A stretch of DNA of 64,000 nucleotides from Candidatus Doudnabacteria bacterium. GTDB lineage: Bacteria > Patescibacteriota > Doudnabacteria > UBA920 > O2-02-FULL-48-8. Under the pieces are notes generated by a model, which saw only the letters and a program-made list of their open reading frames with translations, was not told where the DNA came from and searched no databases. The stretch covers positions 824,235 to 888,234 of the forward strand of contig JBBCGO010000001.1 in the NCBI GenBank assembly GCA_037200925.1, in the 5' to 3' direction. The stretch's first letter is position 1. Every line of letters starts with the position of its first letter. A program made the position numbers and the translations under genes. Shown one piece after another: positions 12,125 through 32,003 of this stretch.

Positions 12125-15100
12125 TCATTCGGATCTGAGCATCGGATATTTTTCTTTTATCCATTTGGTAAAGGATGCCGCGTCTATCGCCGGGCTGAAC
12201 AATTTTCCCTGGCCGCCTTCGCATTTTTGCGATGCAAGAAATTCCAATTGTTCTTTCGTTTCAACTCCTTCGGCAATGACTTTTAATTTCAAATTGTGCG
12301 CCATAGAAATGATGGCTCTGACGATTTCCGCATCCTGTTCGCTGGTGAGGCAGTCTTTTATGAACGATCTGTCGATCTTCAGGTTATTCAAAGGAAAACG
12401 GTTGAGATAGCTTAACGATGAATAGCCTATGCCGAAGTCATCTATGGAAATCTCAAATCCTAATTTTTTCAGGCGCTCCAGCTGCTCAGTTGTGATTTTG
12501 AGATTATGCATGGCAATACTTTCGGTTATTTCCAATTCTATGAAAGCCGGCTTAAGCTTGAGTTCGTGCAGCGTTGAAGCGATTTTTTTGACCAGATTTG
12601 CCTGGGTAAATTGATGAGCGGAAAGGTTGACAGCCAGTTTCAGGTCCGGCAGATCTAATTTGTGCCATTTTTTTAATTGCATGCCGGCCGTTTTCAGGAC
12701 CCAGTCATCGATAGCAATAATTGCGCCGGTGTCCTCAGCCGCAGCAATGAATTCGCGAGGCAGGATCAAACCCAGCTTGGGATGCTGCCATCGGATCAGC
12801 GCTTCGACTGACATTAATGTGCCGTCTTTGACGTTTATCACCGGCTGATAAAATATTTTCAATTCTTTGCGGGACAGCGCCGTGCGCAAAGCAGTTTCGA
12901 TGGCCAATTTTTTGGAGGTCCGCTCGCTCATGCCCTGGTTATAGAGCAGGTGTTTGCTTCTGGCGGATTCTTTCGATCTGTACAAAGCCGTATCCGCGTT
13001 TTTCAGAAGCGTGTGAATATCTTTTCCGTCTTCAGGATAGAGCGCAATGCCCATGCTGGCCCCGACGTGGAGCGTATGGTTATTAATTTTAAATGCCGGC
13101 TTTAATGCCGCAGTGATCTTTTCCGCAACCTTTACCGTCTGGGTGTCATCCCTGATGTTGATAAGCAGAATGATAAATTCATCACCGCCCCACCTTGACA
13201 GCGTATCTTCCCGCCGGATGCACGATCCCAATCGTTCACCGACTTTTTTCAGCAGTTCATCTCCCACGCTGTGTCCCAGCGTGTCGTTGATCGTTTTAAA
13301 TTGGTCTAAATCCAAAAATATGATGCCTACCCGCTCTTTGTGCCGTTTGGCGCGATTAAGCGTCATGCCCAGGCGATCTTCCAGCAATTTTCTGTTGGGC
13401 AGGTTGGTGAGCGTATCATGAAAAGCTTGATGGTGAATTGTCCGTTCGGACTGCTTGCGTTCCCTCACGTCCCGGGCTACGACCGCAATTGCCGAGGATC
13501 TCTTTGTTTTGGGATCGCTTATGGCAAATATATGCATTTCCGTCACAATGGGCGTGCTTGTGGGCAAATGTTTGAGCTGCAGTTCGCCCGTCCAATTTTC
13601 ACCGAGAACTATCGCAGGCAGAATATCCTTTTCCAGTTTTTCCCTGTCAGCTTTCATAAAATAATCAAAAATAGTCATACGTTTTCCATTCCCGTTGCTG
13701 CCGCGCGGGTTTCCTACAAGGCGCCTCCCTCCGCCGTTGAGAAAGAGTATCTTGCCTTCCGGCAGCACCAAACTGATAAAATCGCTGCTGTTTTGAATAA
13801 GCGAGGATAATTCGCGCTGGCGCTGCGAAATGTCCTCGATCGCCAATAAGATCAGGCCAGGCGACCTTTCTCCGTCCTTTGGAATAGCCCGGGCATTCAG
13901 GAGCATGGTCCTGGATTCGTGATTAGGAAAATCATGTTCAATTTCTAAGTCGTGGAATTTTTTACCCTCCGGCAAAATTTCTTCCAAGAGCTTGCGCAAG
14001 CGGGGGATATTCCATTGTCCCTTTTCTATTGTGTACAAGGGCTGCCCCACGACATCTTTTTTCAAAAGTTTAAAAGTAGCATAAAAAGCGGAATTCGCTT
14101 CTTTGATGCGGAGGTCTCCGTCCAGAACCAAAAGAGGTTCGCGGACCGTGTCAAAAACCGCTTCAATATATTCCAGGCTGGTTTTCAGCTTGTCGATGTC
14201 GATCAGCGTAATGACCGTGCCGTTGATCTTGTTGTCGTGGGAGCGGGAAGGATGGATTTGCAGAGAATGCCAGGTGCCTTGCAGATCCTGAACGTCTTTT
14301 TTATATGGCGTGCCGGTAATTATCACTTCCCGCAGCAGCTCTTCCATGTTGGGGACTTTGAGGTTGGATTTGATGTCAGTGATGGGGCGGCCGATATCCG
14401 AGGGTAATATCCTCAAAATTCTTACTGCAGTGGGGGTAAAGCGCCTCACGGTCAGGTCATGTTCCAGCATCACCACCGGTATATCCACGGTGCTCAGAAG
14501 ATTGACCAGATCTTCGGACAACTGCCCTAATTCTGAATTTCTGTGCTGGACTTCTTCATTGACCGTGGTTAATTCCTCATTGGTGGACTGCAGTTCTTCC
14601 TTGGCTGTTTCCAGTTCTTCGTTGGTGCTTTGCAGCTCTTCGTTGCTGGACATGATCTCTTCGTTGGCTGCCATCAATTCTTCGTTGGCCGCCTCATGGT
14701 TTTCGATCAGTTCCTGCAGATATTTTCTGGTTGAGCTGACTTCTTGTTCCAGCTGCTTGTAAGTCTGATTTTTGGAACGTGGCCCTTGGCGCCGATCATT
14801 ATTTTTTTTGACCTTTGCGGCCTGAGCTGAGCTTTCTTCAAAAAGGATCAGGAAGTATGCTCCATTTTTTCCTATCGGAAGAACTTCAATATTGATGTTC
14901 CGATGGCTGCCGTTGATGGTCAGGCCGACATTTTCTTTCCGGAACGGCTTTTTGGTTTTTTTCGCTTCATCAACCGCCTGTGACAATTCTGAAAACAGGC
15001 CGACGGCCACCATTTTCAGTAAACTAAAACTTGCCTTCCCGGGCGCCATCTCCAGGTAAGGGCGGGTTTGGCCCCGGAATTGAATAACCTCCAGTTTGTT

Positions 15101-16750
15101 GTTGATCAAGATGCCGGCCGGAGCAAAATTGTTCACGATCAGGCGGTCAGCTTCTGCCTGAGCGTCCTTGACGCCCAGAATTTTGTTATCTGCAGCGGCT
15201 GTCTGCACCTGCTGCGTTACCGTATCGGCGGTTATCAGGTCGCGTTCATGACGCTGGTCAGAAAGCGGCTGATTGAAAGAAGTGATTGCAGCCGGGTTTG
15301 CCAGGGGATTTTTGGAATAGATCTTATGCTTTTTATCGATTGGAACGAACAGATCGGAAAAACTTCCGGTTGTCTCGGCGGTTCCGAGCTTTAAGAATCC
15401 TCCCGGTTTGAGCGCAAAATGAAACACCGGAAAGATTTTATGGTGCAGTGCCGGCCCCATGTAAATGAGAAGATTTTGGCAGCTGATAAAATCCAGAAAC
15501 GAAAAGGGAGGATCTTTTATCAAATTTTGCTTGGCAAAAACGCACATCTCTCTTATCTGTTTGCTTATCTGGAAACCGTTTTCTACTCTGTGGAAAAAAC
15601 GCTCCAGCCGCTCGGGCGAGACGTCCAGAGCAATATTTTCGATGTAGATCCCTTCGCGGGCGCGGGCCAATGACTTATCGCTGACGTCAGTGGCAAATAT
15701 TTGTACGGGAATGGCGATCTCGCGCTTTTTTAAATATTCAGACAAACTGATGGCAATGGAATAAGCTTCCTCGCCGGTGGAACATCCCGGCACCCAAATT
15801 CTTACGGGTTTGTCCGGAGGTTTGTTTTTTACGAGCGCCGGCCAGACCTTATGTTCCAGTATCTTAAACCCTTCGGGTTCGCGGAAGAAGCGGGTTACGG
15901 TGATCAGAATTTCGTCATACAGTTCACTGATCTCTTGAGGATGGCTCTTTATGAACTCCACATAATCTTTGTAGCTTTCCATCTTATTGAGTGTCATCCG
16001 TCGTTCTATGCGCCGTTTAATTGTGGCGTATTTGTAATTGGCAAAATCAACGCTGGTGTGGATCCGCAGCAAATTCAGAATTTTATGCATCGACTCATTG
16101 CCGGATGCTACGAATTCTTGAGCTGTTTCATATTCGGGCTTGGCCAAGTGCCCATTTTTCGCAAGCTGGCCTAATTCTTTACCGATGTTTTTGGCGGAAA
16201 GGATATGGTCCACGTTGCCGCTGGCAATGGCAGACTGCGGCATGCCGTTATATTTTGCGGATTCCAGATCCTGGGCAATGGTTATGCCGCCCACGGATTT
16301 AATTTCCGAAATACCAAGCGTGCCGTCACTGCCGGTGCCCGACAGAATGACGCCGATCGGCGGCGTACTACTACTACTATCGTCGGCAAGCGATCTGAAA
16401 AAAATATCTATTGGCATATGCTGGCCGTCAAACATTTTCCGCGGTGTCAGATACAGGATCCTGTCTTTTATGGTTATATTTTTATTCGGCGGAATAACAT
16501 ACACGGTATTTGGTGAAACCGGCATATTATTCTTGGCTTCCAGGATCGGAATAGAGGTTTTTTTACTGAGAATTTCCTGCAAATAACTTTCGTGATGGGG
16601 ATCTAAATGCTGAACCAGGACGTAAGCCATATTGGAACGAGGAGGCAAGTATGAAAGCAATTCAAGAAAAGTCTCCAAGCCCCCGGCTGATGCCCCTATA
16701 CCCACAATAGGAAAATTCCCCCTCGGTGCAAGAGGATATTTCTTTTGCAT
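12125..16750 (-). CDS. Giant multidomain signalling protein: CheB methylesterase - CheR methyltransferase - PAS - coiled coil - PAS - GGDEF - EAL
   Basis: CheB_methylest motif VGIGASAGGLETFLELL. The NEEL-repeat coiled coil EELMAANEEIMSSNEELQSTNEELETAKEELQSTNEEL is typical of CheB/CheR fusion proteins. RWGGDEFIILL (GGDEF), EALIRW, ELEITES and DDFGIGYSSLSYL (EAL) follow. Confidence 0.85.
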   Translation of the reverse strand: MQKKYPLAPRGNFPIVGIGASAGGLETFLELLSYLPPRSNMAYVLVQHLDPHHESYLQEILSKKTSIPILEAKNNMPVSPNTVYVIPPNKNITIKDRILYLTPRKMFDGQHMPIDIFFRSLADDSSSSTPPIGVILSGTGSDGTLGISEIKSVGGITIAQDLESAKYNGMPQSAIASGNVDHILSAKNIGKELGQLAKNGHLAKPEYETAQEFVASGNESMHKILNLLRIHTSVDFANYKYATIKRRIERRMTLNKMESYKDYVEFIKSHPQEISELYDEILITVTRFFREPEGFKILEHKVWPALVKNKPPDKPVRIWVPGCSTGEEAYSIAISLSEYLKKREIAIPVQIFATDVSDKSLARAREGIYIENIALDVSPERLERFFHRVENGFQISKQIREMCVFAKQNLIKDPPFSFLDFISCQNLLIYMGPALHHKIFPVFHFALKPGGFLKLGTAETTGSFSDLFVPIDKKHKIYSKNPLANPAAITSFNQPLSDQRHERDLITADTVTQQVQTAAADNKILGVKDAQAEADRLIVNNFAPAGILINNKLEVIQFRGQTRPYLEMAPGKASFSLLKMVAVGLFSELSQAVDEAKKTKKPFRKENVGLTINGSHRNINIEVLPIGKNGAYFLILFEESSAQAAKVKKNNDRRQGPRSKNQTYKQLEQEVSSTRKYLQELIENHEAANEELMAANEEIMSSNEELQSTNEELETAKEELQSTNEELTTVNEEVQHRNSELGQLSEDLVNLLSTVDIPVVMLEHDLTVRRFTPTAVRILRILPSDIGRPITDIKSNLKVPNMEELLREVIITGTPYKKDVQDLQGTWHSLQIHPSRSHDNKINGTVITLIDIDKLKTSLEYIEAVFDTVREPLLVLDGDLRIKEANSAFYATFKLLKKDVVGQPLYTIEKGQWNIPRLRKLLEEILPEGKKFHDLEIEHDFPNHESRTMLLNARAIPKDGERSPGLILLAIEDISQRQRELSSLIQNSSDFISLVLPEGKILFLNGGGRRLVGNPRGSNGNGKRMTIFDYFMKADREKLEKDILPAIVLGENWTGELQLKHLPTSTPIVTEMHIFAISDPKTKRSSAIAVVARDVRERKQSERTIHHQAFHDTLTNLPNRKLLEDRLGMTLNRAKRHKERVGIIFLDLDQFKTINDTLGHSVGDELLKKVGERLGSCIRREDTLSRWGGDEFIILLINIRDDTQTVKVAEKITAALKPAFKINNHTLHVGASMGIALYPEDGKDIHTLLKNADTALYRSKESARSKHLLYNQGMSERTSKKLAIETALRTALSRKELKIFYQPVINVKDGTLMSVEALIRWQHPKLGLILPREFIAAAEDTGAIIAIDDWVLKTAGMQLKKWHKLDLPDLKLAVNLSAHQFTQANLVKKIASTLHELKLKPAFIELEITESIAMHNLKITTEQLERLKKLGFEISIDDFGIGYSSLSYLNRFPLNNLKIDRSFIKDCLTSEQDAEIVRAIISMAHNLKLKVIAEGVETKEQLEFLASQKCEGGQGKLFSPAIDAASFTKWIKEKYPMLRSE

Positions 16751-18351: not shown

Positions 18352-18864
18352 ATGCAAAAGATCTCTCCATTTTTGTGGTTTGACAATAATGCCGAAGAGG
18401 CAATGAAGTATTATGTTTCGGTTTTCGCGGGAAATCCTGCCAAGAAAGCCGAATCGAAAGTCGTAACCATCCAGCGCTATCCGGACGGACCGCTGGAAGG
18501 CCCGATGAAGGGCATGGAAGGAAAAGTTCTGACCGAAGTGTTTGATCTGGAAGGACAACAGCTCATGGCCCTGGACGGCGGGCCGCACTTTAAATTCACT
18601 GAAGCCATCTCCATGTTGGTGGACGTTGAAAATCAGGAAGAGCTTGATTATTTTTGGGACAAACTTTCGGCAGTTCCGCAAGCGGAACAATGCGGCTGGT
18701 GCAAGGACAAATTCGGCCTGTCCTGGCAGATCGCGCCCATGGCTTTAATGGGGCAAATGATGGGGGATAAGGACCGCGCAAAAGGCGGCAGGGTCATGCA
18801 GGCCATGCTGAAGATGAAAAAAATTGACATCGCTGAATTGCAGAGAGCTTACGAACAAGCATAA
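18352..18864 (+). CDS. VOC-family protein, PhnB-like (3-demethylubiquinone-9 3-methyltransferase domain)
   Basis: The N-terminus KISPFLWFDNNAEEAMKYYVSVF is typical of PhnB-like proteins. Confidence 0.7.
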   Translation: MQKISPFLWFDNNAEEAMKYYVSVFAGNPAKKAESKVVTIQRYPDGPLEGPMKGMEGKVLTEVFDLEGQQLMALDGGPHFKFTEAISMLVDVENQEELDYFWDKLSAVPQAEQCGWCKDKFGLSWQIAPMALMGQMMGDKDRAKGGRVMQAMLKMKKIDIAELQRAYEQA

Positions 18865-19014: not shown

Positions 19015-19716
19015 ATGAAAATACGATATATATACATTGCATTGGTTCTAATAGCTGCAATAGTTGTGATCGTATTCAGTATGTCGAATTTTAAGCTTTC
19101 TACCCAGTCAGCCCAGGCAGTTTTCCAAAACATATCGCCTGCTTCTTCAGGTTCTGTTCGCGGTCTCAACCCTAGCGTTGCGTTAGGTCAGATTGCCGGC
19201 GCCTCAATTATTGCCCCTCAATTATCCATGCCGATATCAGCAGGCTTAAGCCGCGTTACCAAAAAACCATACGGGCTGTTTGTCACTCCGCAAACTTCTC
19301 CTGTACCCGATGATATTTTTACCGGATACCATACGGGAATTGATTTTGAAACTACTCCTGCTGAACAAAATACGGATGTAACCATTACAGCGGCCTGTGA
19401 CGGAACGGTATTGCTGAAAGAATGGGCAACCGGTTACGGCGGAGTTTTTGTGCAGAGCTGCAAGCTTGACGGCCAAGACGTGACGGTGATTTACGGCCAT
19501 TTAAATCTTGACAGCATTACTCCCATAGTCGGACAAACCATTACAGCCGGAGATAAGATCGGGAATTTGGGCCAGGGCTTTACGCACGAGACTGACGGCC
19601 GCCGCATGCATCTTCACTTTGACATTCACAAAGGTACTGAAATAAATATTCTCGGTTACGTTCCAAATCAAAGCGATCTTACTAACTGGCTTGACCCGAT
19701 GAAATATTTGCAGTAA
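19015..19716 (+). CDS. M23-family (LytM-like) metallopeptidase
   Basis: HTGIDF, YGHLNL and HLHFDIHKG motifs. N-terminal TM anchor. Confidence 0.8.
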   Translation: MKIRYIYIALVLIAAIVVIVFSMSNFKLSTQSAQAVFQNISPASSGSVRGLNPSVALGQIAGASIIAPQLSMPISAGLSRVTKKPYGLFVTPQTSPVPDDIFTGYHTGIDFETTPAEQNTDVTITAACDGTVLLKEWATGYGGVFVQSCKLDGQDVTVIYGHLNLDSITPIVGQTITAGDKIGNLGQGFTHETDGRRMHLHFDIHKGTEINILGYVPNQSDLTNWLDPMKYLQ

Positions 19717-19724
19717 CTTAAATC

Positions 19725-19751
19725 TTCCCGCTCATGAGCGGGAATTTTTTT
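19725..19751 (+). terminator. Rho-independent terminator
   Basis: TTCCCGCTCATGAGCGGGAA followed by TTTTTTT. Confidence 0.6.
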
Positions 19752-19821
19752 GACTTTCGTTAGCCAATATTTTATAATTAATAACATAATCTTCTAAAAC
19801 GGAAACCAAAAAGGATGTTCA

Positions 19822-22353
19822 ATGAACTTCGTTAAAAAAATATTTTTTGTTCTTGCGATCATTTCTTTTTTTGTAATGCCCAAGGCCATTTCACTGGCTC
19901 AGACGGCATCACCTCTGCTGCCGGCCGGCACGCTTGTCCAAGCAACGGGGGACATTACCGTCTACTATATAGAGAATAACGGGAAGCGGCCGATAGACTC
20001 GTTCGAGACTTTCCGGATGCAGGGATTTCATGCGCCGATCATTGCTGTTTCTCCCGCTGACTTAGCGCTTTATCCTACAGGAGATATCATCACCAAAGAT
20101 TCAACAATCGAAGTTCCCGGTCAATCACAGGTAGTGCCGGACCTGGTGCCATTTGCTCCGAGTGACCTTCAGCTGACACGCCGCAACGGCCGACTGCTGG
20201 TCCTTTTTACGACTTCGTTCTGGAACAGGGGGATGGGCCCTTTGGAACTTGACGCGACCTCATCCAAACCCGTGGCGGACAATACTTACGAAACCGCCCA
20301 GCATATTGTTTTGCCGGATGGATCGGTCCGCAACAAAGTAGTGGGTGATTTTTTCTGGGACGCGCCCCATAAGCATTTTCATTATAATGATTTTGCCTCT
20401 TACATCTTAGCGCCCATGGTCACGTCGCAGGGGCAGGCTCCGACCTTTGTGACGCCGCCCACGAGTACGGTTGTGCCGCCGCCGGCGATCTGGACGCCCG
20501 GGCTGACGCCGTCATTGCCCAAGGGAGCTGTGCTTGGGACGTCCACTGTAGCTCCGCAAGTTCTGAATAAATCCACTTTCTGCCTTTATGAAAATCAGCA
20601 TATCCTGCTGCCGACAGAAGGGGTCAGCAAACCCACGAAATCATACACGATCTGCGGAAGGTTCAAGCAGGGGGTTTCCGTAGGATGGGCGGATGTCTAT
20701 CCGTATTTGCTGGTTGACCAGAATTTTGATGTTACCGATCTGCCGGCAGGAACTTATTCCATATCTTTCGTGGTTGACCCTCACCAGCATTTAATGGAAG
20801 GGTCTCGCGACAACAATATCGGCATGACCATCTTTGATCTGGATCCGGCAAACGGAACCATGAGCATTCTGGCTAGCGGCGCGCCTTTTGCTACGCCGCT
20901 TAATCATTATACGAACGGGATGCTGGTGCGAAGCGAGAGCGACCCGGCCATATTTGTAATGCAGAACAATAAAAAGCAACTGTTGTCAGGTCCGTCAACA
21001 GGTCAGGTCTTTATTTTGCCGCAGGGGGTTTTTGATGCCATCCCTTCCCTGAATCTGATCCAGGCAACGGGTTCGCCGACCATCTATATTCTGAACAATC
21101 AAGGTTTCCGGCGAGGGATCACAAGCATGAATGTTTTCAATTCCTACGGATTGAACCTTTCGGATGTAACTCAGATCAGCCAGGCCGATCTTGTCAATTA
21201 TCCCGAGTCCGACCTTATTGAAAAGCAGGGTGATAACACGGTGTACTCCATAAGCACACATCAATCCGTGGGCACAATCACATCCTTGCCCCAAGGCCTT
21301 GATCCGGCATCGGTTCATATCGTCAACCAAACGGATTTTGAATCGTACATGGTGGCTACGGCCGCCAGCGGCCTGTTCGTTCCGTGGGACATCGCTTTCA
21401 TGCCTAATGGAGATATGCTCGTGCCCGAGCGCTCAGGGGATGTACGCGAGATCGGCAAAAATCCGGGTATCATCACAGTTCCCGGCGTTTTCAGTACAGG
21501 TGAAGGGGGACTCATGGGTCTTACTCTGAGCCCGAAGTTTGCGTCGGACAATTTGATCTATCTTTATTTTACGTCCAACGATAATGGCCAGAAGAACCGG
21601 GTGGCCAGTTTTCAGCTGAACGGAAATCAGCTCAGCAACGAGAAAATTATCATAGATAATATCCCTTCCAGGATCTATCATGACGGCGGCAGGCTTGCCT
21701 TTGGCCCTGACGGCATGCTCTATATCACTACCGGTGATGCCACTTCTCCGAATTTAGCCCAGGATCTCAACTCCCTGGCCGGCAAGACGCTGCGCCTTAT
21801 GCCGGACGGACAGATCCCCGCGGATAATCCTTTCGGAACCGCGGTCTGGTCTTACGGCCACCGCAACAGCGAGGGGATAGCCTGGGACAATCTGGGTCGG
21901 ATGTGGGAAACGGAACACGGGCCGACGCAGGGAGAGCCGGCGGAAAGAGGCCTGTGCTGCCGCGACGAAATAAATCTTATAGAGAAAGGCAAAAATTACG
22001 GCTGGCCGACGATCCAGGGAGATGAAACTAAAGCCGGCATGGTCGCGCCTATGCTCACTTCAGGAGCAAGCACGACATGGGCGCCGGCAGGAATCGCCTT
22101 TGCGGACAAAAGTTTGTACTTTGCCGGGTTAAAAGGCTCCAGCCTGTATCAGATAAGATTTAATGCCGACGGAAGTTACAAAGACCTGACCGCGCATTTT
22201 ACCGGACAATTCGGGCGCCTGCGCGCAGTGGTCCTGGGGCCTGACGGTTCATTGTACCTGAGCACATCAAACAGGGACGGCCGCGGAACTCCTCAATCAG
22301 GAGACGACAAGATCATACGGGTGTATCCGGGATTTCTTCAGAGCACACAGTAA
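19822..22353 (+). CDS. Secreted fusion protein: lysyl-oxidase-like copper amine oxidase domain (N-terminal) plus PQQ-dependent sugar (glucose/sorbosone) dehydrogenase beta-propeller (C-terminal)
   Basis: The signal peptide is followed by VVPDLVPFAPSDLQL, FFWDAPHKHFHYNDFASY (compare LOX WEWHSCHQHYHSMEVFSHY), NKSTFCLYEN and GWADVYPYLLVDQNFDVTDLPAGTYSISFVVDP (compare LOX ...[25 protein letters not shown]). The C-terminal half carries GSDH motifs PWDIAF, GEGGLMGL, GPDGMLYITTGD, YGHRNSEGIAWD and KNYGWP. Confidence 0.7.
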   Translation: MNFVKKIFFVLAIISFFVMPKAISLAQTASPLLPAGTLVQATGDITVYYIENNGKRPIDSFETFRMQGFHAPIIAVSPADLALYPTGDIITKDSTIEVPGQSQVVPDLVPFAPSDLQLTRRNGRLLVLFTTSFWNRGMGPLELDATSSKPVADNTYETAQHIVLPDGSVRNKVVGDFFWDAPHKHFHYNDFASYILAPMVTSQGQAPTFVTPPTSTVVPPPAIWTPGLTPSLPKGAVLGTSTVAPQVLNKSTFCLYENQHILLPTEGVSKPTKSYTICGRFKQGVSVGWADVYPYLLVDQNFDVTDLPAGTYSISFVVDPHQHLMEGSRDNNIGMTIFDLDPANGTMSILASGAPFATPLNHYTNGMLVRSESDPAIFVMQNNKKQLLSGPSTGQVFILPQGVFDAIPSLNLIQATGSPTIYILNNQGFRRGITSMNVFNSYGLNLSDVTQISQADLVNYPESDLIEKQGDNTVYSISTHQSVGTITSLPQGLDPASVHIVNQTDFESYMVATAASGLFVPWDIAFMPNGDMLVPERSGDVREIGKNPGIITVPGVFSTGEGGLMGLTLSPKFASDNLIYLYFTSNDNGQKNRVASFQLNGNQLSNEKIIIDNIPSRIYHDGGRLAFGPDGMLYITTGDATSPNLAQDLNSLAGKTLRLMPDGQIPADNPFGTAVWSYGHRNSEGIAWDNLGRMWETEHGPTQGEPAERGLCCRDEINLIEKGKNYGWPTIQGDETKAGMVAPMLTSGASTTWAPAGIAFADKSLYFAGLKGSSLYQIRFNADGSYKDLTAHFTGQFGRLRAVVLGPDGSLYLSTSNRDGRGTPQSGDDKIIRVYPGFLQSTQ

Positions 22354-22427: not shown

Positions 22428-23273
22428 ATGAATACAACAAAATGGCTGGGAGTAGCCGCAGCCGTTGTGGTTGTGTGTTTATTGGCATTCTGGTTGACGC
22501 GGCCGAAAAATTCAACTCCGACCGATCAGACTCAAACATCACAACAGCCGGCCCAAACGCCAACCCCAACACCAACACCAACGCCGCCCAACGGGACCGT
22601 AAAATTAAGTTCCAAGACCGCTTTGGGTAATTTTCTTGTCGACTCAAACGGCATGACCTTATATTATTTTGCTAACGACAAAATTAATACAAGCAATTGC
22701 GCGGCCGGGCCGTGTTTGGATTTTTGGCCGATATATTCCCAGAGCAATATTGCGGCGCAGCCTCCGCTTTTGCAAACAGATTTCGCCCAAATTACCCGCA
22801 GTGACGGGGTTAAACAAACAACGTATAAGGGCTGGCCTGTATACTATTTCATAAAAGACAAACAGCCGGGCGACACGCTCGGCATAGGCGTGATGAATAC
22901 CTGGTATTTGTTTCCTGATCCTTTTTACACTGTCATGGTGGAAAATCAGGACAGCGTCGGCGGCAATTATTTGATCGATCCCAAGGGCATGACTCTTTAT
23001 TCCTTTGCCAATGACAAGCAAGGCTCAGCAACCACATCTCCCGTAAGCAACTGCACGGGGAAATGCGTAACCACCTGGCCGGTTTTTTCCACCAGCAGCG
23101 TCATCGCTCCGTCATTGCTGAAGAACTCAGACTTTTCAACTTTCAAACGTTCGGACGGCGCAAATCAGCTGGCGTATAAAGGATGGCCGCTCTATTATTA
23201 CTCTTCCGACACCAAATCCGGGGACGTAATGGGCCAGAACTTCAACAAACTCTGGTTCGTGGTCAAGCCTTAG
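22428..23273 (+). CDS. Secreted or lipoprotein with two PF03640-type 'secreted repeat of unknown function' units and a Pro/Thr-rich linker
   Basis: YKGWPVYYFIKDKQPGDTLGIGVMNTWYLF and YKGWPLYYYSSDTKSGDVMGQNFNKLWFVV are duplicated. The signal-anchor is followed by TPTPTPTPTPP. Confidence 0.65.
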   Translation: MNTTKWLGVAAAVVVVCLLAFWLTRPKNSTPTDQTQTSQQPAQTPTPTPTPTPPNGTVKLSSKTALGNFLVDSNGMTLYYFANDKINTSNCAAGPCLDFWPIYSQSNIAAQPPLLQTDFAQITRSDGVKQTTYKGWPVYYFIKDKQPGDTLGIGVMNTWYLFPDPFYTVMVENQDSVGGNYLIDPKGMTLYSFANDKQGSATTSPVSNCTGKCVTTWPVFSTSSVIAPSLLKNSDFSTFKRSDGANQLAYKGWPLYYYSSDTKSGDVMGQNFNKLWFVVKP

Positions 23274-23315: not shown

Positions 23316-23326
23316 ATTCTAAGCCC

Positions 23327-24628
23327 ATGGCAGATGCAGAAATTATAATTGTTGGAGCGGGAGCCGCGGGGCTCATGGCAGCGCGAGAATTATCAAAGTC
23401 CGGAAGACGGGTTCTGATTCTTGAAGCAAGGGACAGAATAGGCGGCAGGATCTGGCCGCTTTCTGAAAAAGAATTCGGATATCCGGCCCAAGGCGGAGCG
23501 GAGTTTGTGCATGGACCCGCGAAGGTGACCAAATCCTTGCTTGCTGAGGCTGGACTTACTTATGTATCCATGTCGGAAGATGGTGAAATGTGGAATGTGC
23601 GGGACGGCAAATTTGCAAAGAACAGTTCTGATCCCACAGAAAATGCCGTGTTCACGGCGCACCATAATTTGATGATAGAAAAGCTAAAGGCATTAACGGA
23701 AGATATTTCAATTTCTGATTTCCTTCGGAAAAATTTTGCAGAAGAAAAATATACCGCTTTACGCGCGTACATATCCAGAATGGTGGAAGGATTTGACGCG
23801 GCCGACCCTGATCACATCAGCACGTTTTCGGTTCGGGATGAATGGCTAGGCGCGGAGGAATGGGAGCAGGGGAGAGTTAAGGAGAGTTACAAGGCTGTTA
23901 TAGATTTTTTGGAATTGGAATGTAAAAAGCACGGTGTCGCAATACTTTTCAATCAGGAAGTTGTTTCGGTTGAAATGGACACACCCGGCATCAGTGTTAA
24001 AGTTAAGGATAATCAAGATTATCATGCACAAAAAGTAGTAATTACCGTCCCGTTGCCTATAATAAGCAAGCTCCGGTTTCAACCGGAATTGCCTGAAAAA
24101 CTTGAGGCCGCATCAAATATCGGTTTTGGCCAAGTGATAAAGTTACTGCTTCGGTTCAAAGACCAATGGTGGGTCCGTCAAACAGACCAGGATCTGAGCA
24201 AAATGTCATTTTTATTTTCTGACCAGGAAATGGGCACTTGGTGGACGCAATATCCTGATCCGCAACCTGTGCTGACAGGCTGGATCGCAGGGCCAAGAGC
24301 GCTGAAGTTTAAAGATAAATCATCTGAAGAGATATTTGAACTGGCGCTGAATTCGCTTGCAAATATTTTTAAAACAGATAAACAAAAGCTTAGACAACAA
24401 GTGGTCGCATCAAAAGTGATAAACTGGCCCAAAGATCCTTTCGCTTTAGGCGCTTACAGTTATTCCACCATTGAATCCGCCAAAGCGTACGCCGAGTTGC
24501 GGGAGCCTGTGAAAAATACAATTTACTTTGCCGGCGAGGCTGTGTATGCTGAAGAAGATACTGCAACAGTGGAAGGAGCTTTGGCCAGCGGCCTGGAAGC
24601 TGCGCAAAAGATCTTGGCATTAAATTAA
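23327..24628 (+). CDS. Flavin-containing amine oxidase-family oxidoreductase (start moved to the Met after the terminator)
   Basis: Rossmann fold IIIVGAGAAGLMAARELSKSGRRVLILEARDRIGGR. Amino_oxidase-like C-terminus YFAGEAV. Confidence 0.7.
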   Translation: MADAEIIIVGAGAAGLMAARELSKSGRRVLILEARDRIGGRIWPLSEKEFGYPAQGGAEFVHGPAKVTKSLLAEAGLTYVSMSEDGEMWNVRDGKFAKNSSDPTENAVFTAHHNLMIEKLKALTEDISISDFLRKNFAEEKYTALRAYISRMVEGFDAADPDHISTFSVRDEWLGAEEWEQGRVKESYKAVIDFLELECKKHGVAILFNQEVVSVEMDTPGISVKVKDNQDYHAQKVVITVPLPIISKLRFQPELPEKLEAASNIGFGQVIKLLLRFKDQWWVRQTDQDLSKMSFLFSDQEMGTWWTQYPDPQPVLTGWIAGPRALKFKDKSSEEIFELALNSLANIFKTDKQKLRQQVVASKVINWPKDPFALGAYSYSTIESAKAYAELREPVKNTIYFAGEAVYAEEDTATVEGALASGLEAAQKILALN

Positions 24629-26572: not shown

Positions 26573-26992
26573 TTGATGATAAACAAGGATTATAAGCAGG
26601 TTTTACGGGCAGTCAAGCTGAAAGCCACTCCGGGACGCATCGAATTGCTGGCTTTTTTGACCAATACCTTGCAGCCATATTCCATCAAGGAAATTGGCAA
26701 GGCTGTGGGATCAAAGACCCTGGATCAAGCCACGATTTACCGCAACCTCGAGCATTTTAGGGAAGCGGGACTTGTGCGGCATATTGATTTTGGTGATGGA
26801 GTCGGCCGGTTTGAATTGAAAACCCATAACCACCATCATCATATTATTTGCACCAGCTGTCGGAAGGTGGAGGATATTCACGTCGAACGCGATGTCGGGC
26901 CGATCGAGCAAAAAATCCGCCGAAAAAAACATTTCACCGTGCATAGCCATTCTTTGGAATTTTTCGGCTTGTGCAAAGCCTGTGCGAAATAA
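26573..26992 (+). CDS. Fur-family transcriptional regulator (likely Zur, given the ZIP transporter downstream)
   Basis: ATPGRIELLAFL DNA-binding helix, HxH and two CxxC pairs (CTSC...CKAC). Confidence 0.8.
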   Translation: MMINKDYKQVLRAVKLKATPGRIELLAFLTNTLQPYSIKEIGKAVGSKTLDQATIYRNLEHFREAGLVRHIDFGDGVGRFELKTHNHHHHIICTSCRKVEDIHVERDVGPIEQKIRRKKHFTVHSHSLEFFGLCKACAK

Positions 26993-27006
26993 TTAACATA
27001 AATCAA

Positions 27007-27732
27007 ATGGAAGCGATCCTACTTTCAATAGCAACTTTTTTCTCCACATTGTTCGGCGGCCTGTTTGCGGTCAGGTTCCGCGACAAATTGCATCTGATCA
27101 TGGGCTTTACGGCCGGCGTCCTGCTCGGCGTGGTCAGCTTTGATATTTTTCCGGAGATCATAGAGCTGATAAAAGATAACAACCTTAAGACCATTGATGT
27201 CATGGTGGCCTTGGTCATCGGTTTTCTGCTGTTCCATATTTTGGAAAAATTCATAGCCCTGCATCATTCGCATGAAGGATTTTATGCTGACCACAAACAC
27301 CCGCACGTCGGAGTTTTTTCCGCGTTAGCTTTGGCCGGACACAGTTTTATGGACGGGGTGGGGATTGGCCTTGGATTCCAGGTCAATCCGGCAGTGGGCC
27401 TGCTTGTGGCTATCGCGGTCATTTCGCATGATTTTACCGACGGCATGAATACGGTGACGCTGATGCTGAACAGCAATAATACAACGCGGAAATCCAAAAT
27501 GTTCCTGCTGCTTGATTCCGTAACCCCGGTGCTGGGGGCTTTGTCCACGCTCTTGTTCAGGTTTTCGCCGCATTTTCTGGCCTTATACCTCGGTTTCTTT
27601 GCGGGCTTCCTCCTCTACATCGGCGCTTCCGATATTTTGCCTGAGGCGCACAGCAAGAACAGCTCTGCCAAGCTGATATTTCTTACCGTACTGGGAGTCG
27701 TGTTCATCTTCATAGTCACGCGTTTTGTCTAG
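27007..27732 (+). CDS. ZIP-family metal (zinc) transporter, ZupT-like
   Basis: HHSHEGFYADHKHPH His-rich loop, HSFMDGVGIG and ISHDFTDG ZIP signature helices. Confidence 0.8.
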   Translation: MEAILLSIATFFSTLFGGLFAVRFRDKLHLIMGFTAGVLLGVVSFDIFPEIIELIKDNNLKTIDVMVALVIGFLLFHILEKFIALHHSHEGFYADHKHPHVGVFSALALAGHSFMDGVGIGLGFQVNPAVGLLVAIAVISHDFTDGMNTVTLMLNSNNTTRKSKMFLLLDSVTPVLGALSTLLFRFSPHFLALYLGFFAGFLLYIGASDILPEAHSKNSSAKLIFLTVLGVVFIFIVTRFV

Positions 27733-27749
27733 TTTATTTATCTGATATA

Positions 27750-28892
27750 ATGGATAACATGCAGCATAAGAAGCTTGTTATCCTGTTAGCATTTCTGATC
27801 CTGGTACCGCGTCTGGCATTGGCCCAGGATAATAATTCAGAACCGATTGACGGCGTTCAAAACATTCCCGCAGATGCGTATTACAAAGCCCAGGTAACAC
27901 AGATCGTGAACCAGGAATATCTCGGATCCGGAGCGGACAAGCAGATCTTCCAGGACCTGAAAGTAAAAATTCTTTCAGGGGATGAAAAAAACAAGGAAGT
28001 TGAGATAGACAGGGTGGGAGGGGTCAATATCAACGGCGGCAAGGGATTCAAAGCGGGGGACAAGGTTGTAATTGATAAGACCACGGACAACGGCCAGACG
28101 GTTTATTATGTGGAAGACATCTACCGCATCCCTGCGCTGGTGTTTGCCACGATCATTTTTTTGTTGGTCGCAATATTCTTCAGCCGCTGGCGGGGAGTCG
28201 GTTCCATTCTGGGCCTCGTGATCACGATTGCGGTGATCATTAAATTCGTCACGCCGCAGATCATTGCCGGAAAGAATCCTATAGAGATAAGTCTCATCGG
28301 CGCATTCATTATCGCTTTCGTATCTTTGTATCTGGCTCACGGATTCAATAAGCGCACATCCATCGCCATTTTAAGCACATTCATAACCTTAAGCCTGTCC
28401 ATTGCTATGGCTTACGGATTTGTTCATTTTACCCGGCTTTTCGGCAACGGCAGCGAAGAGTCGGTATATCTGCAATTCGGACCGACAGGACACATAAATC
28501 TGCAAGGACTGCTCTTGGGCGGGATCATTCTGGGTGCCTTGGGCGTTTTGGACGATATCACCACAGCACAGTCGGCCACCGTGCATGAGCTGAAGAAAGC
28601 CAATCCTTCATCAACCTTCAAGCAGTTGTATACGGGCGCAGCTTCAGTCGGCCAGGAGCATATTTCTTCTTTAATTAACACTTTATTTTTGGCATATGCC
28701 GGTGTTGCCCTGCCGCTATTTTTGCTGTTCACGGTCAACGGCGGCACGCCGATCTGGATCACGCTGAACTCCGAATTCATCGCGGAGGAAATAGTCAGAA
28801 CTCTGGTCGGAAGCATCACTTTGATCGTGGCAGTGCCCATCACAACTTTATTGGCGGCTTACTTTTTCAGCCGCAGAAAGGAAGAAGCATGA
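27750..28892 (+). CDS. YibE/F-family membrane protein
   Basis: GVLDDITTAQSATVHEL and a multi-TM layout typical of YibE/F. Confidence 0.7.
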   Translation: MDNMQHKKLVILLAFLILVPRLALAQDNNSEPIDGVQNIPADAYYKAQVTQIVNQEYLGSGADKQIFQDLKVKILSGDEKNKEVEIDRVGGVNINGGKGFKAGDKVVIDKTTDNGQTVYYVEDIYRIPALVFATIIFLLVAIFFSRWRGVGSILGLVITIAVIIKFVTPQIIAGKNPIEISLIGAFIIAFVSLYLAHGFNKRTSIAILSTFITLSLSIAMAYGFVHFTRLFGNGSEESVYLQFGPTGHINLQGLLLGGIILGALGVLDDITTAQSATVHELKKANPSSTFKQLYTGAASVGQEHISSLINTLFLAYAGVALPLFLLFTVNGGTPIWITLNSEFIAEEIVRTLVGSITLIVAVPITTLLAAYFFSRRKEEA

Positions 28893-29779
28893 AAAAGACT
28901 TCTATAATTATTTTAATTGCCGCGGTTTTGGCCGTGGGATTTTATTTAGCATACAAGCACGATCGGAGTTCAAAAAATCATCCGGGTCCGGCAAACATGT
29001 CAGGGATGAATATGGCCGGCATGAACATGGGCGGGGATGTGAGCAAAAGATACACGGTCAGCTTTACGACAAACCCGGTAAACGTTCTGCCGAATCAAAA
29101 TGTTGAGCTGAAATTCAAAGTTTATGATGCTTCAAGCGGCAACGAGGTGACGGACTACAGCACGGTAATGACCAAATTGATACACCTCGTCATTGTGAAC
29201 AGCAACCTGGATTATTTTGACCATATCCATCCGGTCCAGAACGGGTCGCAGTTTAGTATCAGCACAAAATTCCCGAAGGCCGATACTTATCACCTTTATA
29301 TTAATTTTCAGCCGACAGGCGCAACTGAACAGCAGATCGGTTTTTCACTGCCGGTCGGCGGCGGGACTACCAGCCCGCGTTCAAATGTGCCGGTTGATAC
29401 AAGCTTGACCAAAACATTCGGCGATTATAAGGTGACTTTGAGCACAGCTGACGGCAGTGATTTCAATGCCAATGCCATGAACAACCTGGCCCAGATCATA
29501 AATTTTCATCTGGCTGATGCGGCGACCGGCCAGCCGATCACTGATCTTTCGCCGTACTTGGGCGCCTTCGGGCACCTGGTCATGGTCAATGAAGAGACTT
29601 ACAAATACGTGCATATTCATCCGATAGCCTCGGATAATACTGCGGCCGGGGGGCCTGACGTGAAATTTTTGCCTGCGATATTGTTTGATAAGATAGAACC
29701 AGGGATCTACCGGGTCTTCGGGCAGTTCAACCGCAATAACCAGGTCTTTGTCGCGGATTTTACCATTAAGCTCAATTAA
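28889..29779 (+). CDS. Membrane-anchored Met-rich putative metal-binding protein with two duplicated HIHP motifs
   Basis: MSGMNMAGMNMGG Met-rich segment. FDHIHPV and VHIHPI repeats ~120 aa apart. Confidence 0.4.
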   Translation: MKKTSIIILIAAVLAVGFYLAYKHDRSSKNHPGPANMSGMNMAGMNMGGDVSKRYTVSFTTNPVNVLPNQNVELKFKVYDASSGNEVTDYSTVMTKLIHLVIVNSNLDYFDHIHPVQNGSQFSISTKFPKADTYHLYINFQPTGATEQQIGFSLPVGGGTTSPRSNVPVDTSLTKTFGDYKVTLSTADGSDFNANAMNNLAQIINFHLADAATGQPITDLSPYLGAFGHLVMVNEETYKYVHIHPIASDNTAAGGPDVKFLPAILFDKIEPGIYRVFGQFNRNNQVFVADFTIKLN

Positions 29780-30591: not shown

Positions 30592-30621
30592 AGTTCGACT
30601 TACTATTAATTTGTTTGAAAC

Positions 30622-31251: not shown

Positions 31252-31308
31252 AGTGTAAAAAACAAAAATACCCCGGCCTTTCGGCCGGGGTATTTTTAAA
31301 TTCGCGGG

Positions 31309-31950: not shown

Positions 31951-32003
31951 GGGTATATATTACTATATTCAATTCAATTTGTGCAATATGGTATAATGAA
32001 GCT

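Follow-up and report, generated by a model that had tools for sequence, protein, structure and literature searches.

Lysyl-oxidase-family domains paired with PQQ sugar dehydrogenase propellers in Patescibacteria

Introduction

Why would a host-dependent bacterium join a lysyl oxidase (LOX)-family domain to a PQQ-dependent sugar dehydrogenase propeller in one exported polypeptide? The question is raised by a locus in a 64,000-nucleotide stretch of DNA from Candidatus Doudnabacteria (contig JBBCGO010000001.1), which we refer to as the window. Candidatus Doudnabacteria belongs to the Patescibacteria (CPR), a very large, mostly uncultivated radiation of ultrasmall, host-dependent bacteria, and to our knowledge almost nothing is known of the extracellular enzymology of this group. 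The locus encodes a protein deposited at NCBI as MEJ0021867.1, ‘PQQ-dependent sugar dehydrogenase [Candidatus Doudnabacteria bacterium]’. This label conceals a copper amine-oxidase domain, and does so across the whole family. What lysyl oxidases do natively in prokaryotes has been called enigmatic or cryptic (PMC4448552, PMC6452851). We did not find a description of a fusion between LOX and a PQQ propeller in the published literature.

Results

Domain layout of the fusion protein

The open reading frame (Table 1) is preceded by an AAGGA Shine-Dalgarno-like motif 8 nt 5′ of its ATG. Pfam profiles PF01186 and PF07995 both match the 843-residue product above their cut-offs, which bears out the proposal of an earlier note on this DNA that a LOX-type copper domain is fused to a PQQ-type GSDH propeller. 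All motifs quoted in that note were found in the reading frame: VVPDLVPFAPSD at residues 104–115, WDAPHKHFHYNDFASY at 179–194, KSTFCLYE at 250–257, DVTDLPAGTYSISFVVDP at 303–320, GPDGMLYITTGD at 628–639 and YGHRNSEGIAWD at 678–689. The domain limits had to be redrawn, with the propeller starting at residue ~513 rather than ~470, and four repeat modules had been overlooked. The order of parts is thus signal peptide, one repeat, LOX domain, three repeats and a six-bladed GSDH propeller.

This multidomain protein is predicted to be extracytoplasmic. That it is secreted was also part of the earlier note, and this agrees with inspection by eye, as basic residues, a hydrophobic stretch and SLA followed by Q are present at the N-terminus of the protein and of its homologues. 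The repeat modules, about 50–55 residues long, flank and link the two catalytic domains. The N-terminal copy had no Pfam or PDB match, and the three linking copies gave only a weak Pfam match to LysM_OapA (E=0.03).

Table 1. Coordinates of the features at the locus, as positions in the window
Feature	Position	Strand	Basis or remark
Membrane-anchored M23 peptidoglycan endopeptidase	19015..19716	+	PF01551, E=6e-14
Terminator-like hairpin with T-run	19725-19744	+	Consensus scan only
Promoter-like TTGACT-17-TATAAT	19750-19778	+	Consensus scan only
Complete LOX-GSDH reading frame	19822..22353	+	ATG start, 843 aa, TAA stop
Predicted Sec signal peptide, MNFVKKIFFVLAIISFFVMPKAISLA followed by Q	19822..19899	+	Read from sequence; homologue N-termini equivalent
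N-terminal ~55-aa beta-rich repeat copy, residues 33-92	19918..20097	+	Homologue alignment; pLDDT ~90
LOX-type catalytic domain, residues 100-348	20119..20865	+	PF01186, profile against LOXL2, Foldseek
PDL motif, P106 D107 L108	20137..20145	+	P106 and D107 invariant
Putative copper-binding HxHxH, H183/H185/H187	20368..20382	+	Aligned to LOXL2 H626/H628/H630; invariant
Pro/Thr-rich 49-aa insertion, residues 197-245	20410..20556	+	Between Cu motif and K250
K250, predicted LTQ precursor lysine	20569..20571	+	Aligned to LOXL2 K653; invariant
C254 and C278	20581..20655	+	Invariant; aligned to LOXL2 C657-C673 disulfide
Y293, predicted LTQ precursor tyrosine and fourth metal ligand	20698..20700	+	Aligned to LOXL2 Y689; invariant
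E326, N331, N332	20797..20817	+	Invariant; aligned to LOXL2 structural Ca-site E722, N727, N728
Three tandem repeat copies, residues 362-410, 411-463, 464-512	20905..21357	+	Join LOX to propeller
Six-bladed PQQ/Ca aldose-sugar-dehydrogenase (GSDH) propeller, residues 513-843	21358..22350	+	PF07995, 3A9G, TM
Private 6-aa insertion, then vicinal Cys pair C712-C713	21931..21960	+	Loop after EHG motif

The lysyl oxidase domain

The PF01186 match (35.1 bits against a cut-off of 20.4, E=1.4e-8) covers only residues 250–334. A family profile built from 19 sequences over residues 96–348 extended the similarity: it matched human LOXL2 (5ZE3) with E=1.9e-13, in an alignment running from the HxHxH copper motif to the C-terminal block. 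A Foldseek search of the PDB with a LOX-only structure model yielded 5ZE3 as the single match with E≤0.001 (E=1.8e-5, probability 1.0, TMq 0.47–0.49), the runner-up having E=0.19. In the models, the loop K250–Y293 is of low confidence, with a pLDDT of 45–75 over residues 245–300. In the LOXL2 crystal, which represents the precursor state, the distance K653–Y689 is 16.6 Å (PMC5899467).

H183/H185/H187, K250 and Y293 are kept in all 21 homologues compared and in 10 further proteins of variant architecture, so that the conservation check on the HxHxH and Lys residues supports the earlier assignment and extends to the Tyr. Judged by motif resemblance, the PDL motif is a putative counterpart of the LOXL2 Ca-site ligands D549/L550 (Ca-site residues taken from PMC5899467). 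The Pro/Thr-rich insertion is private to the window protein in the homologue alignment, with a shorter form in one homologue (P0001), and is predicted to be disordered (pLDDT 30–45). These results show that the N-terminal domain is a genuine member of the lysyl oxidase family, whose copper and LTQ roles are assigned by residue alignment. Such domains are not scarce: at 50% identity clustering, the LOX profile matched 6,715 clusters at E≤1e-3 and 687 at E≤1e-30, so that the rarity of bacterial LOX homologues stated in the earlier note is an outdated view.

The PQQ propeller domain

PF07995 matches residues 520–821 with E=3.6e-78 and covers profile positions 3–329 of 332. The comparison with the PQQ aldose dehydrogenase 3A9G gave E=7e-76, and the propeller model superposes on 3A9G, 3DAS and 2ISM with a target-normalised TM of 0.87–0.90 and an rmsd of 2.1–2.3 Å. 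H620 (YHDGG), R681–N682 (GHRN), E698–H699–G700, D715–E716 and R799/R801 are identical in 3A9G, 2ISM, 3DAS and 2G8S, and invariant in 18/18 propeller-bearing family members; they comprise the catalytic His, the PQQ-binding Arg/Asn and Arg-x-Arg, and the Ca-binding loop. We take these motifs to be the equivalents of sGDH His144, Arg228/Asn229 and Arg406/408, in part after PMC6881789.

Membership in the long sGDH-B-type subfamily was rejected, since the score against NCBIfam TIGR03606 (non_repeat_PQQ) was 125.3 bits and its cut-off is 434.55; the propeller therefore lies outside this subfamily and is of the shorter Asd/3A9G type. The 6-aa insertion and C712–C713, modelled with a pLDDT <50, are common to 3/18 fused homologues and to a split Doudnabacteria GSDH. 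Together, the motifs and matches show that the C-terminal domain is a genuine Asd-type PQQ/Ca sugar dehydrogenase propeller, with all active-site motifs intact at the level of sequence.

The window protein has neither a cytochrome domain nor a CxxCH motif, and we see no obvious natural electron acceptor for PQQH2. We noticed no pqq genes among the ~34 window open reading frames scanned, and CPR genomes have been reported to lack pqq biosynthesis genes (preprint 10.64898/2026.07.10.737718).

LOX and propeller as a near-obligate pair

In the GTDB species loci of CPR bacteria, a propeller accompanies LOX in 19 of the 20 that could be assessed. Twelve of these 19 are in-frame fusions; the propeller is otherwise encoded by a downstream gene (4 loci), an upstream AA12-like gene (2) or a divergent gene (1). 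The pair occurs in at least six gene arrangements. The propeller follows or precedes LOX in fusions, or has a gene of its own that lies downstream, upstream or in divergent orientation. In P0109 the order of the fusion is reversed (GSDH-LOX), and a LOX-repeat gene (P0035) is overlapped by its upstream AA12-like propeller gene. The split version in Doudnabacteria is genuine, as the LOX gene ends in a TAA stop and the GSDH gene after it carries a separate lipoprotein signal.

A sister subfamily, found in 31 of the nearest 150 cluster representatives, combines a membrane anchor, a YceG-like module and LOX. A GSDH gene comes directly after each of the three YceG-LOX genes examined, either overlapping it or separated from it by 1 bp. 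The YceG/MltG-like part covers profile positions 1–163 of 275, which suggests that it may bind rather than cut.

Among the ~59 LOX loci outside Patescibacteria, none is associated with a propeller, M23 or YceG except for one planctomycete locus (L066), in which a dihaem cytochrome c with two CxxCH motifs is joined to LOX-GSDH. At a Halobacteriales locus (L082), LOX stands alone. LOX and the PQQ propeller therefore form a near-obligate pair in Patescibacteria, and we hold both the domain identities and the pairing with high confidence.

The upstream M23 gene

The gene upstream of the fusion encodes an M23 endopeptidase with an N-terminal helix as membrane anchor and with both family motifs, HxxxD (HTGID) and HxH (HLHFDIH). 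The hairpin and the promoter-like motif between the two genes make them look like separate transcription units. An orthologue of this M23 protein adjoins LOX in 11 distinct other loci, in differing orientations, with 40–58% identity over the whole protein and 43–69% over the catalytic part; it is present beside about half of the CPR LOX/propeller loci. Of the eight other window neighbours, one (PF06983) recurs in three loci and the remaining seven in 0–1. LOX neighbourhoods also contain MurJ, a sortase and a D-Ala-D-Ala carboxypeptidase.

Discussion

Comparison with known systems

The window protein shares with animal LOX/LOXL2 (5ZE3) the catalytic family, HxHxH, the LTQ Lys/Tyr, the C657–C673 disulfide and counterparts of E722/N727/N728, and both are extracellular, by prediction for the window protein. 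Identity to LOXL2 is, however, ~17% in the structural alignment, and the window domain lacks four of the five catalytic-domain disulfides. Unlike animal LOX, the protein has no propeptide or SRCR domains and adds a PQQ propeller and repeats. The animal substrates, collagen and elastin, cannot be those of the window domain. Closer in kind is the prokaryotic LOX of Haloterrigena turkmenica (HTU-LOX), a Cu-dependent, BAPN-sensitive amine oxidase acting on Lys-containing peptides and polymers (PMC6452851), whose activity supports amine-oxidase chemistry for bacterial LOX homologues. It differs in being a single-domain protein of ‘cryptic’ native function, and no link to a propeller, M23 or YceG has been described in its case.

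The propeller is 40–44% identical to 3A9G, 3DAS and 2ISM and ~31% to 2G8S. These enzymes (P. aerophilum 3A9G/3A9H, T. thermophilus 2ISM, S. coelicolor 3DAS and E. coli Asd/YliI 2G8S) are stand-alone periplasmic or secreted proteins, whereas the window propeller is the C-terminal domain of an 843-residue protein in an organism reportedly unable to make PQQ, and its insertion with the vicinal Cys pair sets it apart from known aldose sugar dehydrogenases.

Fungal AA12 PQQ dehydrogenases pass electrons to copper LPMOs via a fused cytochrome. CcPDH, a fungal quinohaemoprotein pyranose dehydrogenase in which the PQQ propeller is fused to an electron-acceptor domain (PMC6881789), is the closest functional analogy for a putative PQQ-plus-copper partnership, since it likewise combines an extracellular propeller (AA12) with a second redox domain (AA8 cytochrome b) and a polymer-binding module (CBM1). 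Its partner is nevertheless a haem domain and not a Cu/LTQ amine oxidase, its AA12 propeller is <20% identical, and its substrate is plant polysaccharide. The planctomycete fusion is an architectural intermediate between CcPDH and the window protein.

A possible role at the cell envelope

M23 (LytM/lysostaphin-type) and YceG/MltG enzymes are not homologues of the window protein; they are recurrent neighbours or fusion partners of the Patescibacterial LOX clade, and both families act on peptidoglycan. We tentatively favour, at somewhat less than an even chance, a reading in which LOX and propeller cooperate on the cell envelope, either the bacterium’s own wall or that of its host. The LOX domain would use O2 to deaminate a primary amine oxidatively, releasing a reactive aldehyde, NH3 and H2O2. 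Its substrate could be a Lys, Orn or DAP residue of a peptidoglycan stem peptide, whose free side-chain amine the M23 enzyme would expose. The propeller would oxidise a hemiacetal-type carbon on the same polymer, for which GlcNAc or MurNAc at a reducing end is one candidate and the LOX aldehyde, in hydrated or cyclised form, another. The repeat modules would anchor the protein to the wall. PQQ would have to be scavenged by the bacterium, because of the reported lack of pqq biosynthesis genes in CPR genomes. Peptidoglycan is the most plausible LOX target, the argument being one of guilt by association. The idea of coupled chemistry on cell-wall or host polymers, put forward in the earlier note, is considerably strengthened by the gene association but not proven.

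Several observations count against the envelope reading. The repeat modules show no recognisable wall-binding homology, and M23 and LOX-GSDH appear to be transcribed separately in the window. About half of the CPR loci lack M23, as does every YceG-LOX locus examined. The incomplete YceG-like part may be a binding module, the LTQ loop is modelled with low confidence, and PQQH2 has no obvious natural acceptor. HTU-LOX is also promiscuous, so the true substrates could be small free amines. A more specific proposal is that LOX makes aldehyde-based covalent cross-links or tethers in peptidoglycan, within the bacterium’s own wall or between symbiont and host, independently of ATP and transpeptidases. 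In this scheme M23 would have the task of uncovering amines on the stem peptides, and the propeller that of processing either the glycan end or the aldehyde. We regard cross-linking as unlikely at present.

Alternative explanations

The two domains might instead be redox partners that exchange electrons between the Cu/LTQ and PQQ centres, and need not share a substrate. Either LOX would be a built-in O2-reducing outlet for PQQH2 in organisms that have no respiratory chain, making the protein a self-contained sugar oxidase, or electrons would flow from the PQQ domain to the copper centre, much as they do from fungal AA12 to LPMOs. A near-obligate pairing that is independent of gene order is what redox partners would be expected to show, and CPR bacteria are not known to have cytochromes or quinones. 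That the LOX partner can be either Asd-type or AA12-like suggests that the PQQ redox function outweighs a specific sugar substrate. Extracellular PQQ propellers fused to electron-acceptor domains are also known, in CcPDH and in reported haem-domain fusions (preprint 10.64898/2026.07.10.737718). Yet LOX chemistry needs just O2 and an amine, with no reductant, and ~150 residues of repeat modules separate LOX from the propeller in the fused proteins. Moreover, the planctomycete protein carries a dihaem cytochrome in addition, which suggests that the propeller depends on a distinct acceptor even where LOX is present. Overall, electron exchange seems to us rather improbable.

If the amines are soluble or sit on host surfaces, the locus could serve antagonism or nutrient scavenging: an H2O2- and NH3-releasing system with M23 as lytic partner would harm hosts or competitors or harvest nitrogen, resembling the H2O2-generating lysine oxidases of marine bacteria. 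H2O2 and NH3 are products of LOX turnover, CPR bacteria are episymbionts that rely heavily on host metabolism, and bacteriolytic toxins occur among M23 enzymes. The substrates of HTU-LOX include many free amines and antibiotics, and the group that characterised it suggests nitrogen acquisition or competition as its role (PMC6452851). This explanation leaves the requirement for a PQQ propeller and the membrane-anchored YceG-like fusion unaccounted for, however, and the M23 partner is held in the membrane by its N-terminal helix and is not obviously a released toxin. We give it a low probability. It is very unlikely, finally, that the functions are unrelated and the fusion an evolutionary accident, or that one domain is a non-catalytic binding module like the HHIP propeller. 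HHIP-type propellers do bind ligands without catalysis, the TIGR03606 cut-off was missed, and the deposited annotation names only a sugar dehydrogenase; but at least six independent arrangements retain the pair, and in both domains every residue assigned to catalysis or cofactor binding is invariant.

Implications for Patescibacteria and prokaryotic LOX

What is new is that Patescibacterial LOX has a near-constant PQQ-propeller partner, a frequent M23 neighbour and a sister fusion to a YceG/MltG-like module. Pairing in at least six layouts, often beside cell-wall enzymes, offers a first testable clue to the function of bacterial LOX. The genes are amenable to expression, and one relative of the locus is from Saccharibacteria (L023), for which genetic tools have been reported (PMC10633639). 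The pairing also prompts one to ask what re-oxidises a PQQ enzyme on the outside of a cell without a respiratory chain. Cross-linking, if true, would be a bacterial counterpart of collagen and elastin cross-linking, and would for the first time give a prokaryotic LOX a physiological role. The partnership of LOX and PQQ propeller, in many loci joined by M23, thus provides a concrete hypothesis for these bacteria, namely that they may oxidatively modify or cross-link the wall at the interface between symbiont and host.

The open reading frame and its layout

The ORF under study is uninterrupted, runs from an ATG start to a TAA stop and encodes 843 amino acids, with an AAGGA motif resembling a ribosome-binding site 8 nt 5′ of its start. 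The identical protein, encoded on a 964-kb contig of a Patescibacterial (CPR) organism, is already deposited (NCBI MEJ0021867.1) under a name that covers the C-terminal domain only. An earlier note, made from the sequence alone, had described a secreted fusion of a lysyl-oxidase (LOX) domain with a PQQ-dependent sugar-dehydrogenase (GSDH) propeller, and all motifs that it cited were found in the ORF at the positions given. Residues 1–26 look like a Sec-like signal peptide, a putative assignment from our reading of the N-terminus, and the homologues look alike in this respect. A beta-rich module of ~55 amino acids is present in four copies, one ahead of the LOX domain (residues 33–92) and three in the stretch that links LOX to the propeller (residues 362–512). 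The AlphaFold model of the full-length protein was confident overall (mean pLDDT 81), and the module was modelled well (pLDDT ~90). The GC content of the gene is 52.3%, vs 46.3% for the window and 45.4% for the adjoining M23 peptidoglycan endopeptidase gene; amino-acid composition and horizontal transfer are possible reasons.

Searches for the identity of the module returned only a sub-threshold LysM_OapA match in Pfam at E≤10, and no match when a profile of 34 module sequences was run against the 5.8-billion-protein database. BurrH, which the same profile retrieved from the PDB, was rejected as an artefact of 16 summed insignificant repeat matches.

The LOX domain

The Pfam Lysyl_oxidase family (PF01186) matched above its cut-off (35.1 vs 20.4 bits, E=1.4e-8), over residues 250–334 only. 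Since this partial match leaves out the copper motif, we built a family profile. A search of 5.8 billion proteins with the N-terminal half yielded ~20 relatives of 764–823 amino acids, which carry both Pfam families, are 35–60% identical across that half and, wherever named, are labelled Patescibacteria (CPR). Invariant in their alignment are H183, H185, H187, K250, C254, C278, W289, D291, Y293, E326, N331 and N332, so that conservation extends to the HxHxH motif and the lysine singled out earlier as the copper site and the context of the lysine tyrosylquinone (LTQ) cofactor.

The profile of residues 96–348 matched human LOXL2 (5ZE3) with E=1.9e-13, in an alignment that has the copper motif at one end and the C-terminal block at the other. 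Residue equivalences follow from numbering this alignment by the crystal construct, residues 318–774 (PMC5899467). H183, H185 and H187 align with the metal ligands H626, H628 and H630, and K250 and Y293 with the LTQ precursors K653 and Y689, the latter being also the fourth metal ligand of LOXL2 (PMC5899467). C254 and C278 correspond to the disulfide C657–C673, and E326, N331 and N332 to E722, N727 and N728 of the structural Ca site. When the model of the LOX region was compared with the PDB, human LOXL2 was the sole significant match (E=1.8e-5, probability 1.0; next E=0.19). The LTQ loop reached a pLDDT of 40–60 when the domain was modelled alone, worse than in the full-length run. Between the copper motif and K250, the window protein has a private insertion of 49 residues (197–245) that is predicted to be disordered and is rich in Pro and Thr.

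The GSDH propeller

The second half of the proposed fusion was borne out by a match of nearly the entire GSDH profile (PF07995) to residues 520–821, with E=3.6e-78. The propeller superimposes on the PQQ aldose sugar dehydrogenases 3A9G, 3DAS and 2ISM with TM scores of 0.87–0.90 at 40–44% identity. The active-site motifs, i.e. the catalytic H620, the PQQ-binding R681-N682, the Ca loop (E698-H699-G700 and D715-E716) and the Arg-x-Arg pair R799/R801, agree exactly in the pairwise alignments and are invariant in 18 of 18 propeller-bearing family members. As the score for the NCBIfam sGDH-B-type model lay far under its cut-off, we assign the propeller to the short Asd/3A9G type of soluble aldose dehydrogenase. 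Propellers of the Asd type use PQQ and Ca and oxidise the anomeric carbon of aldoses. The LOX and GSDH domains carry all that sequence can show for a predicted catalytic competence.

The loop that follows EHG carries a private six-residue insertion and then the vicinal cysteines C712-C713, adjoining the Ca/PQQ loop. Such a pair is common to three of 18 relatives (P0012 and P0021 among them) and to a GSDH encoded separately from LOX in another Doudnabacteria genome (NCCQDE). Eight-bladed methanol dehydrogenases have a vicinal disulfide beside PQQ, which C712-C713 recalls.

Pairing of LOX and propeller across genomes

The main finding beyond the single ORF is the pairing of LOX with a PQQ propeller. 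GTDB was scanned at one genome per species with a single peptide pattern, QG[VI]SVGWAD; 80 loci were kept of 135 matches, and the counts therefore describe a sample. Propeller, repeat and M23 sequences were sought in each locus, whose ORFs were then resolved, with many flanks shortened by contig ends. Seven loci titled "uncultured Gammaproteobacteria" (L012, L013, L015, L016, L018–L020) were counted as Patescibacterial by sequence and architecture: they carry LOX-repeat-GSDH genes and M23 neighbours closely homologous to Patescibacterial ones, and the titles may be wrong.

Among the 21 Patescibacterial loci of the sample, a PQQ propeller accompanies LOX in 19 of the 20 that could be assessed. 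Twelve of these 19 encode an in-frame LOX-repeat-GSDH fusion. The remainder have a separate GSDH gene immediately downstream of LOX (four loci: L010, L021, L023, L027), a propeller gene of the other, AA12-like type immediately upstream (two loci: L022, L026) or a divergent GSDH gene beside LOX (L038). L010 is the same place as L008, the Doudnabacteria split, where the GSDH gene has its own lipoprotein-type signal and starts 31 bp after the LOX stop; the clean TAA, the 31-bp spacer and the new start rule out a frameshift as the cause.

Bacterial LOX homologues had been called rare, but the LOX profile retrieved 6,715 LOX-like clusters from 1.84 billion cluster representatives, 687 of them at E≤1e-30. 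The nearest 150 clusters include a fusion in reverse order, GSDH-LOX (P0109), and 14 LOX-repeat proteins; one LOX-repeat gene (P0035) is overlapped by an AA12-like propeller gene upstream. The catalytic LOX residues are invariant in all variant architectures compared.

Elsewhere, in ~59 loci from Planctomycetota, Verrucomicrobiota, Chloroflexota, Actinomycetota, Halobacteriales and others, no propeller was found near LOX, with one exception. A re-scan with three propeller queries, directed at AA12-like propellers outside CPR that the initial Asd-type query might have missed, left this outcome unchanged. The exception is a 1,087-aa ORF of an uncultured planctomycete (L066, CAZYLP010000006.1), in which the C-terminal domain that follows LOX and GSDH bears two CxxCH haem motifs (CFRCH and CSHCH). 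Its sequence marks it as a LOX-quinoprotein-dihaem cytochrome c fusion, and on its contig a stretch of N directly precedes the LOX part. These results show that LOX and the PQQ propeller are evolutionarily locked together in the Patescibacterial lineage.

Links to the cell wall

The M23 gene upstream of the LOX-GSDH gene has orthologues in 11 further distinct loci, each adjoining the LOX/propeller genes, with 40–58% identity over the whole protein and 43–69% over the catalytic part. Their placement varies: some are same-strand upstream genes, some are divergent, and some lie downstream in opposite orientation. As a synteny control, nine window neighbours including M23 were searched in the same LOX loci. 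Seven of the other eight occur in at most one other locus and one (PF06983) in three; therefore, the M23 linkage is specific and not general synteny. About half of the CPR loci have no M23 gene, and neither do those encoding the YceG-LOX proteins described below. In the window, a T-run hairpin and then a near-consensus promoter lie between the M23 and LOX-GSDH genes, so the two are probably transcribed separately.

In 31 proteins within the nearest 150 clusters (P0041–P0129), a membrane anchor and a module like the peptidoglycan enzyme YceG/MltG precede LOX. Because they match only positions 1–163 of the 275 in the YceG profile, the lytic part may be missing. In each of the three loci examined, YceG-LOX is directly followed by a separate GSDH gene; the two genes lie 1 bp apart or overlap by ≤17 bp. 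One member is named 'cell division protein YceG' in one source. Genes for MurJ, sortase and D-Ala-D-Ala carboxypeptidase also occur in LOX-locus neighbourhoods. Together with M23 and the YceG-like fusions, these predicted functions point to action at the cell envelope.

In the window, genes for a sortase and a SpaA/ice-binding-like surface protein precede LOX-GSDH by ~10–18 kb; the same pair is immediately upstream of M23-LOX-GSDH in L007. The PF06983 gene near M23/LOX-GSDH, labelled '3-demethylubiquinone-9 3-methyltransferase', actually belongs to a glyoxalase-fold family and has no signal peptide.

Further features of the window

A metal-homeostasis and oxidative-folding cluster lies 4–10 kb downstream of LOX-GSDH and could be a plausible source of copper and disulfides for the LOX domain. 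The cluster is not repeated in the flanks of the other loci and was set aside as a part of the system, leaving weak context only. The secreted PF03640 protein directly downstream of LOX-GSDH, found near no other LOX locus, was likewise rejected, as were RibD_C and a flavin-containing amine oxidase, which do not recur in other LOX loci. The latter, an unrelated second amine oxidase 1 kb downstream, lacks a signal peptide and is therefore probably cytoplasmic.

The window also holds a 1,541-aa signalling protein, elaborate to an unusual degree given the reduced genome, and several RNA elements; ARAGORN found no tRNA in it.

Coordinates of features in the window and in other LOX loci
Feature	Position	Strand	Remark
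Group I intron	1432-1663		complete; Rfam, 57.9 bits, E=4e-12
Sortase and SpaA/ice-binding-like surface protein	1824-3965; 8639-9376; 9529-12069	-; +; +	
Signalling protein	12125-16750	-	CheB methylesterase, CheR methyltransferase, PAS domains, GGDEF, EAL
PF06983 protein	18352-18864		
M23 peptidase	19015-19716		105 bp upstream of LOX-GSDH ORF; membrane anchor, HxxxD and HxH intact
LOX-GSDH ORF	19822-22353	+	
Insertion and C712-C713	21931-21960		residues 704-713
PF03640 (Lipoprotein_15) protein	22428-23273		four repeats, E=5e-52
Flavin-containing Amino_oxidase	23324-24628		PF01593, E=1e-59
Metal cluster, whole	26573-32435		
Fur-family regulator	26573-26992		metal cluster
ZIP transporter	26971-27732		metal cluster
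YibE/F	27750-28892		metal cluster
Secreted protein	28889-29779		metal cluster; Met-rich MSGMNMAGMNMGG stretch
Secreted protein	29779-30591		metal cluster; predicted mature N-terminus begins with His
DUF1775/YcnI-family protein	30622-31251		metal cluster; a Cu(II)-binding family
DsbA-like	31309-31950	-	metal cluster
DsbB	31944-32435		metal cluster
AdoCbl-II riboswitch aptamer	41352-41429	-	
tmRNA	43885-44268	+	tag peptide ANSLVSKVKNAFAFSPALALA
Sortase and SpaA/ice-binding pair	L007 3265-5067		
PF06983 gene, other loci	L007 8404-8913; L009 3-299; L017 3435-3884; P0019 locus		
LOX-GSDH-cytochrome ORF	L066 4695-7958		
YceG-LOX subfamily	loci L025, L090, L091, L092		31 proteins, P0041-P0129

A proposed wall-directed mechanism and its alternatives

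One prokaryotic LOX, HTU-LOX, is established as an amine oxidase that depends on Cu and is sensitive to BAPN; its substrates include Lys-containing peptides and polymers as well as many small amines (PMC6452851). For CPR genomes, PQQ biosynthesis is reported missing (preprint 10.64898/2026.07.10.737718). For the window protein we infer a wall-directed mechanism of two enzymes, which we put forward tentatively, as a serious possibility somewhat short of probable when taken as a whole. The repeat modules would hold the protein on the wall, and M23 cleavage would expose side-chain amines of the stem peptides. LOX would turn these into aldehydes, giving off NH3 and H2O2, and the propeller would oxidise a hemiacetal-type carbon of that polymer, belonging either to a reducing-end sugar or to the aldehyde in its hydrated or cyclised form.

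Alternatively, the two domains could be direct redox partners, PQQ with Cu/LTQ. The lack of a respiratory acceptor for PQQH2 in CPR cells would speak for such a partnership; the planctomycete version, however, brings its own cytochrome, and we consider this explanation unlikely. A weapon generating H2O2 and NH3, or a system scavenging nitrogen, appears a slightly poorer prospect again. That the fusion is accidental or non-catalytic is very improbable: the arrangements are many and independent and the active sites are invariant, both of which contradict it.

Prokaryotic LOX proteins have been described as nearly all single-domain (PMC4448552), Parcubacterial LOX was touched on only in passing (PMC6452851), and the six-bladed PQQ propellers of CPR were treated without mention of LOX (preprint 10.64898/2026.07.10.737718). 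We found no published description of a LOX-GSDH fusion or of a bacterial link between LOX and peptidoglycan, in a literature coverage that is incomplete, so that absence is not proof. Both domain families are known, and what is new is their conserved architecture, the gene module and the functional hypothesis resting on them.
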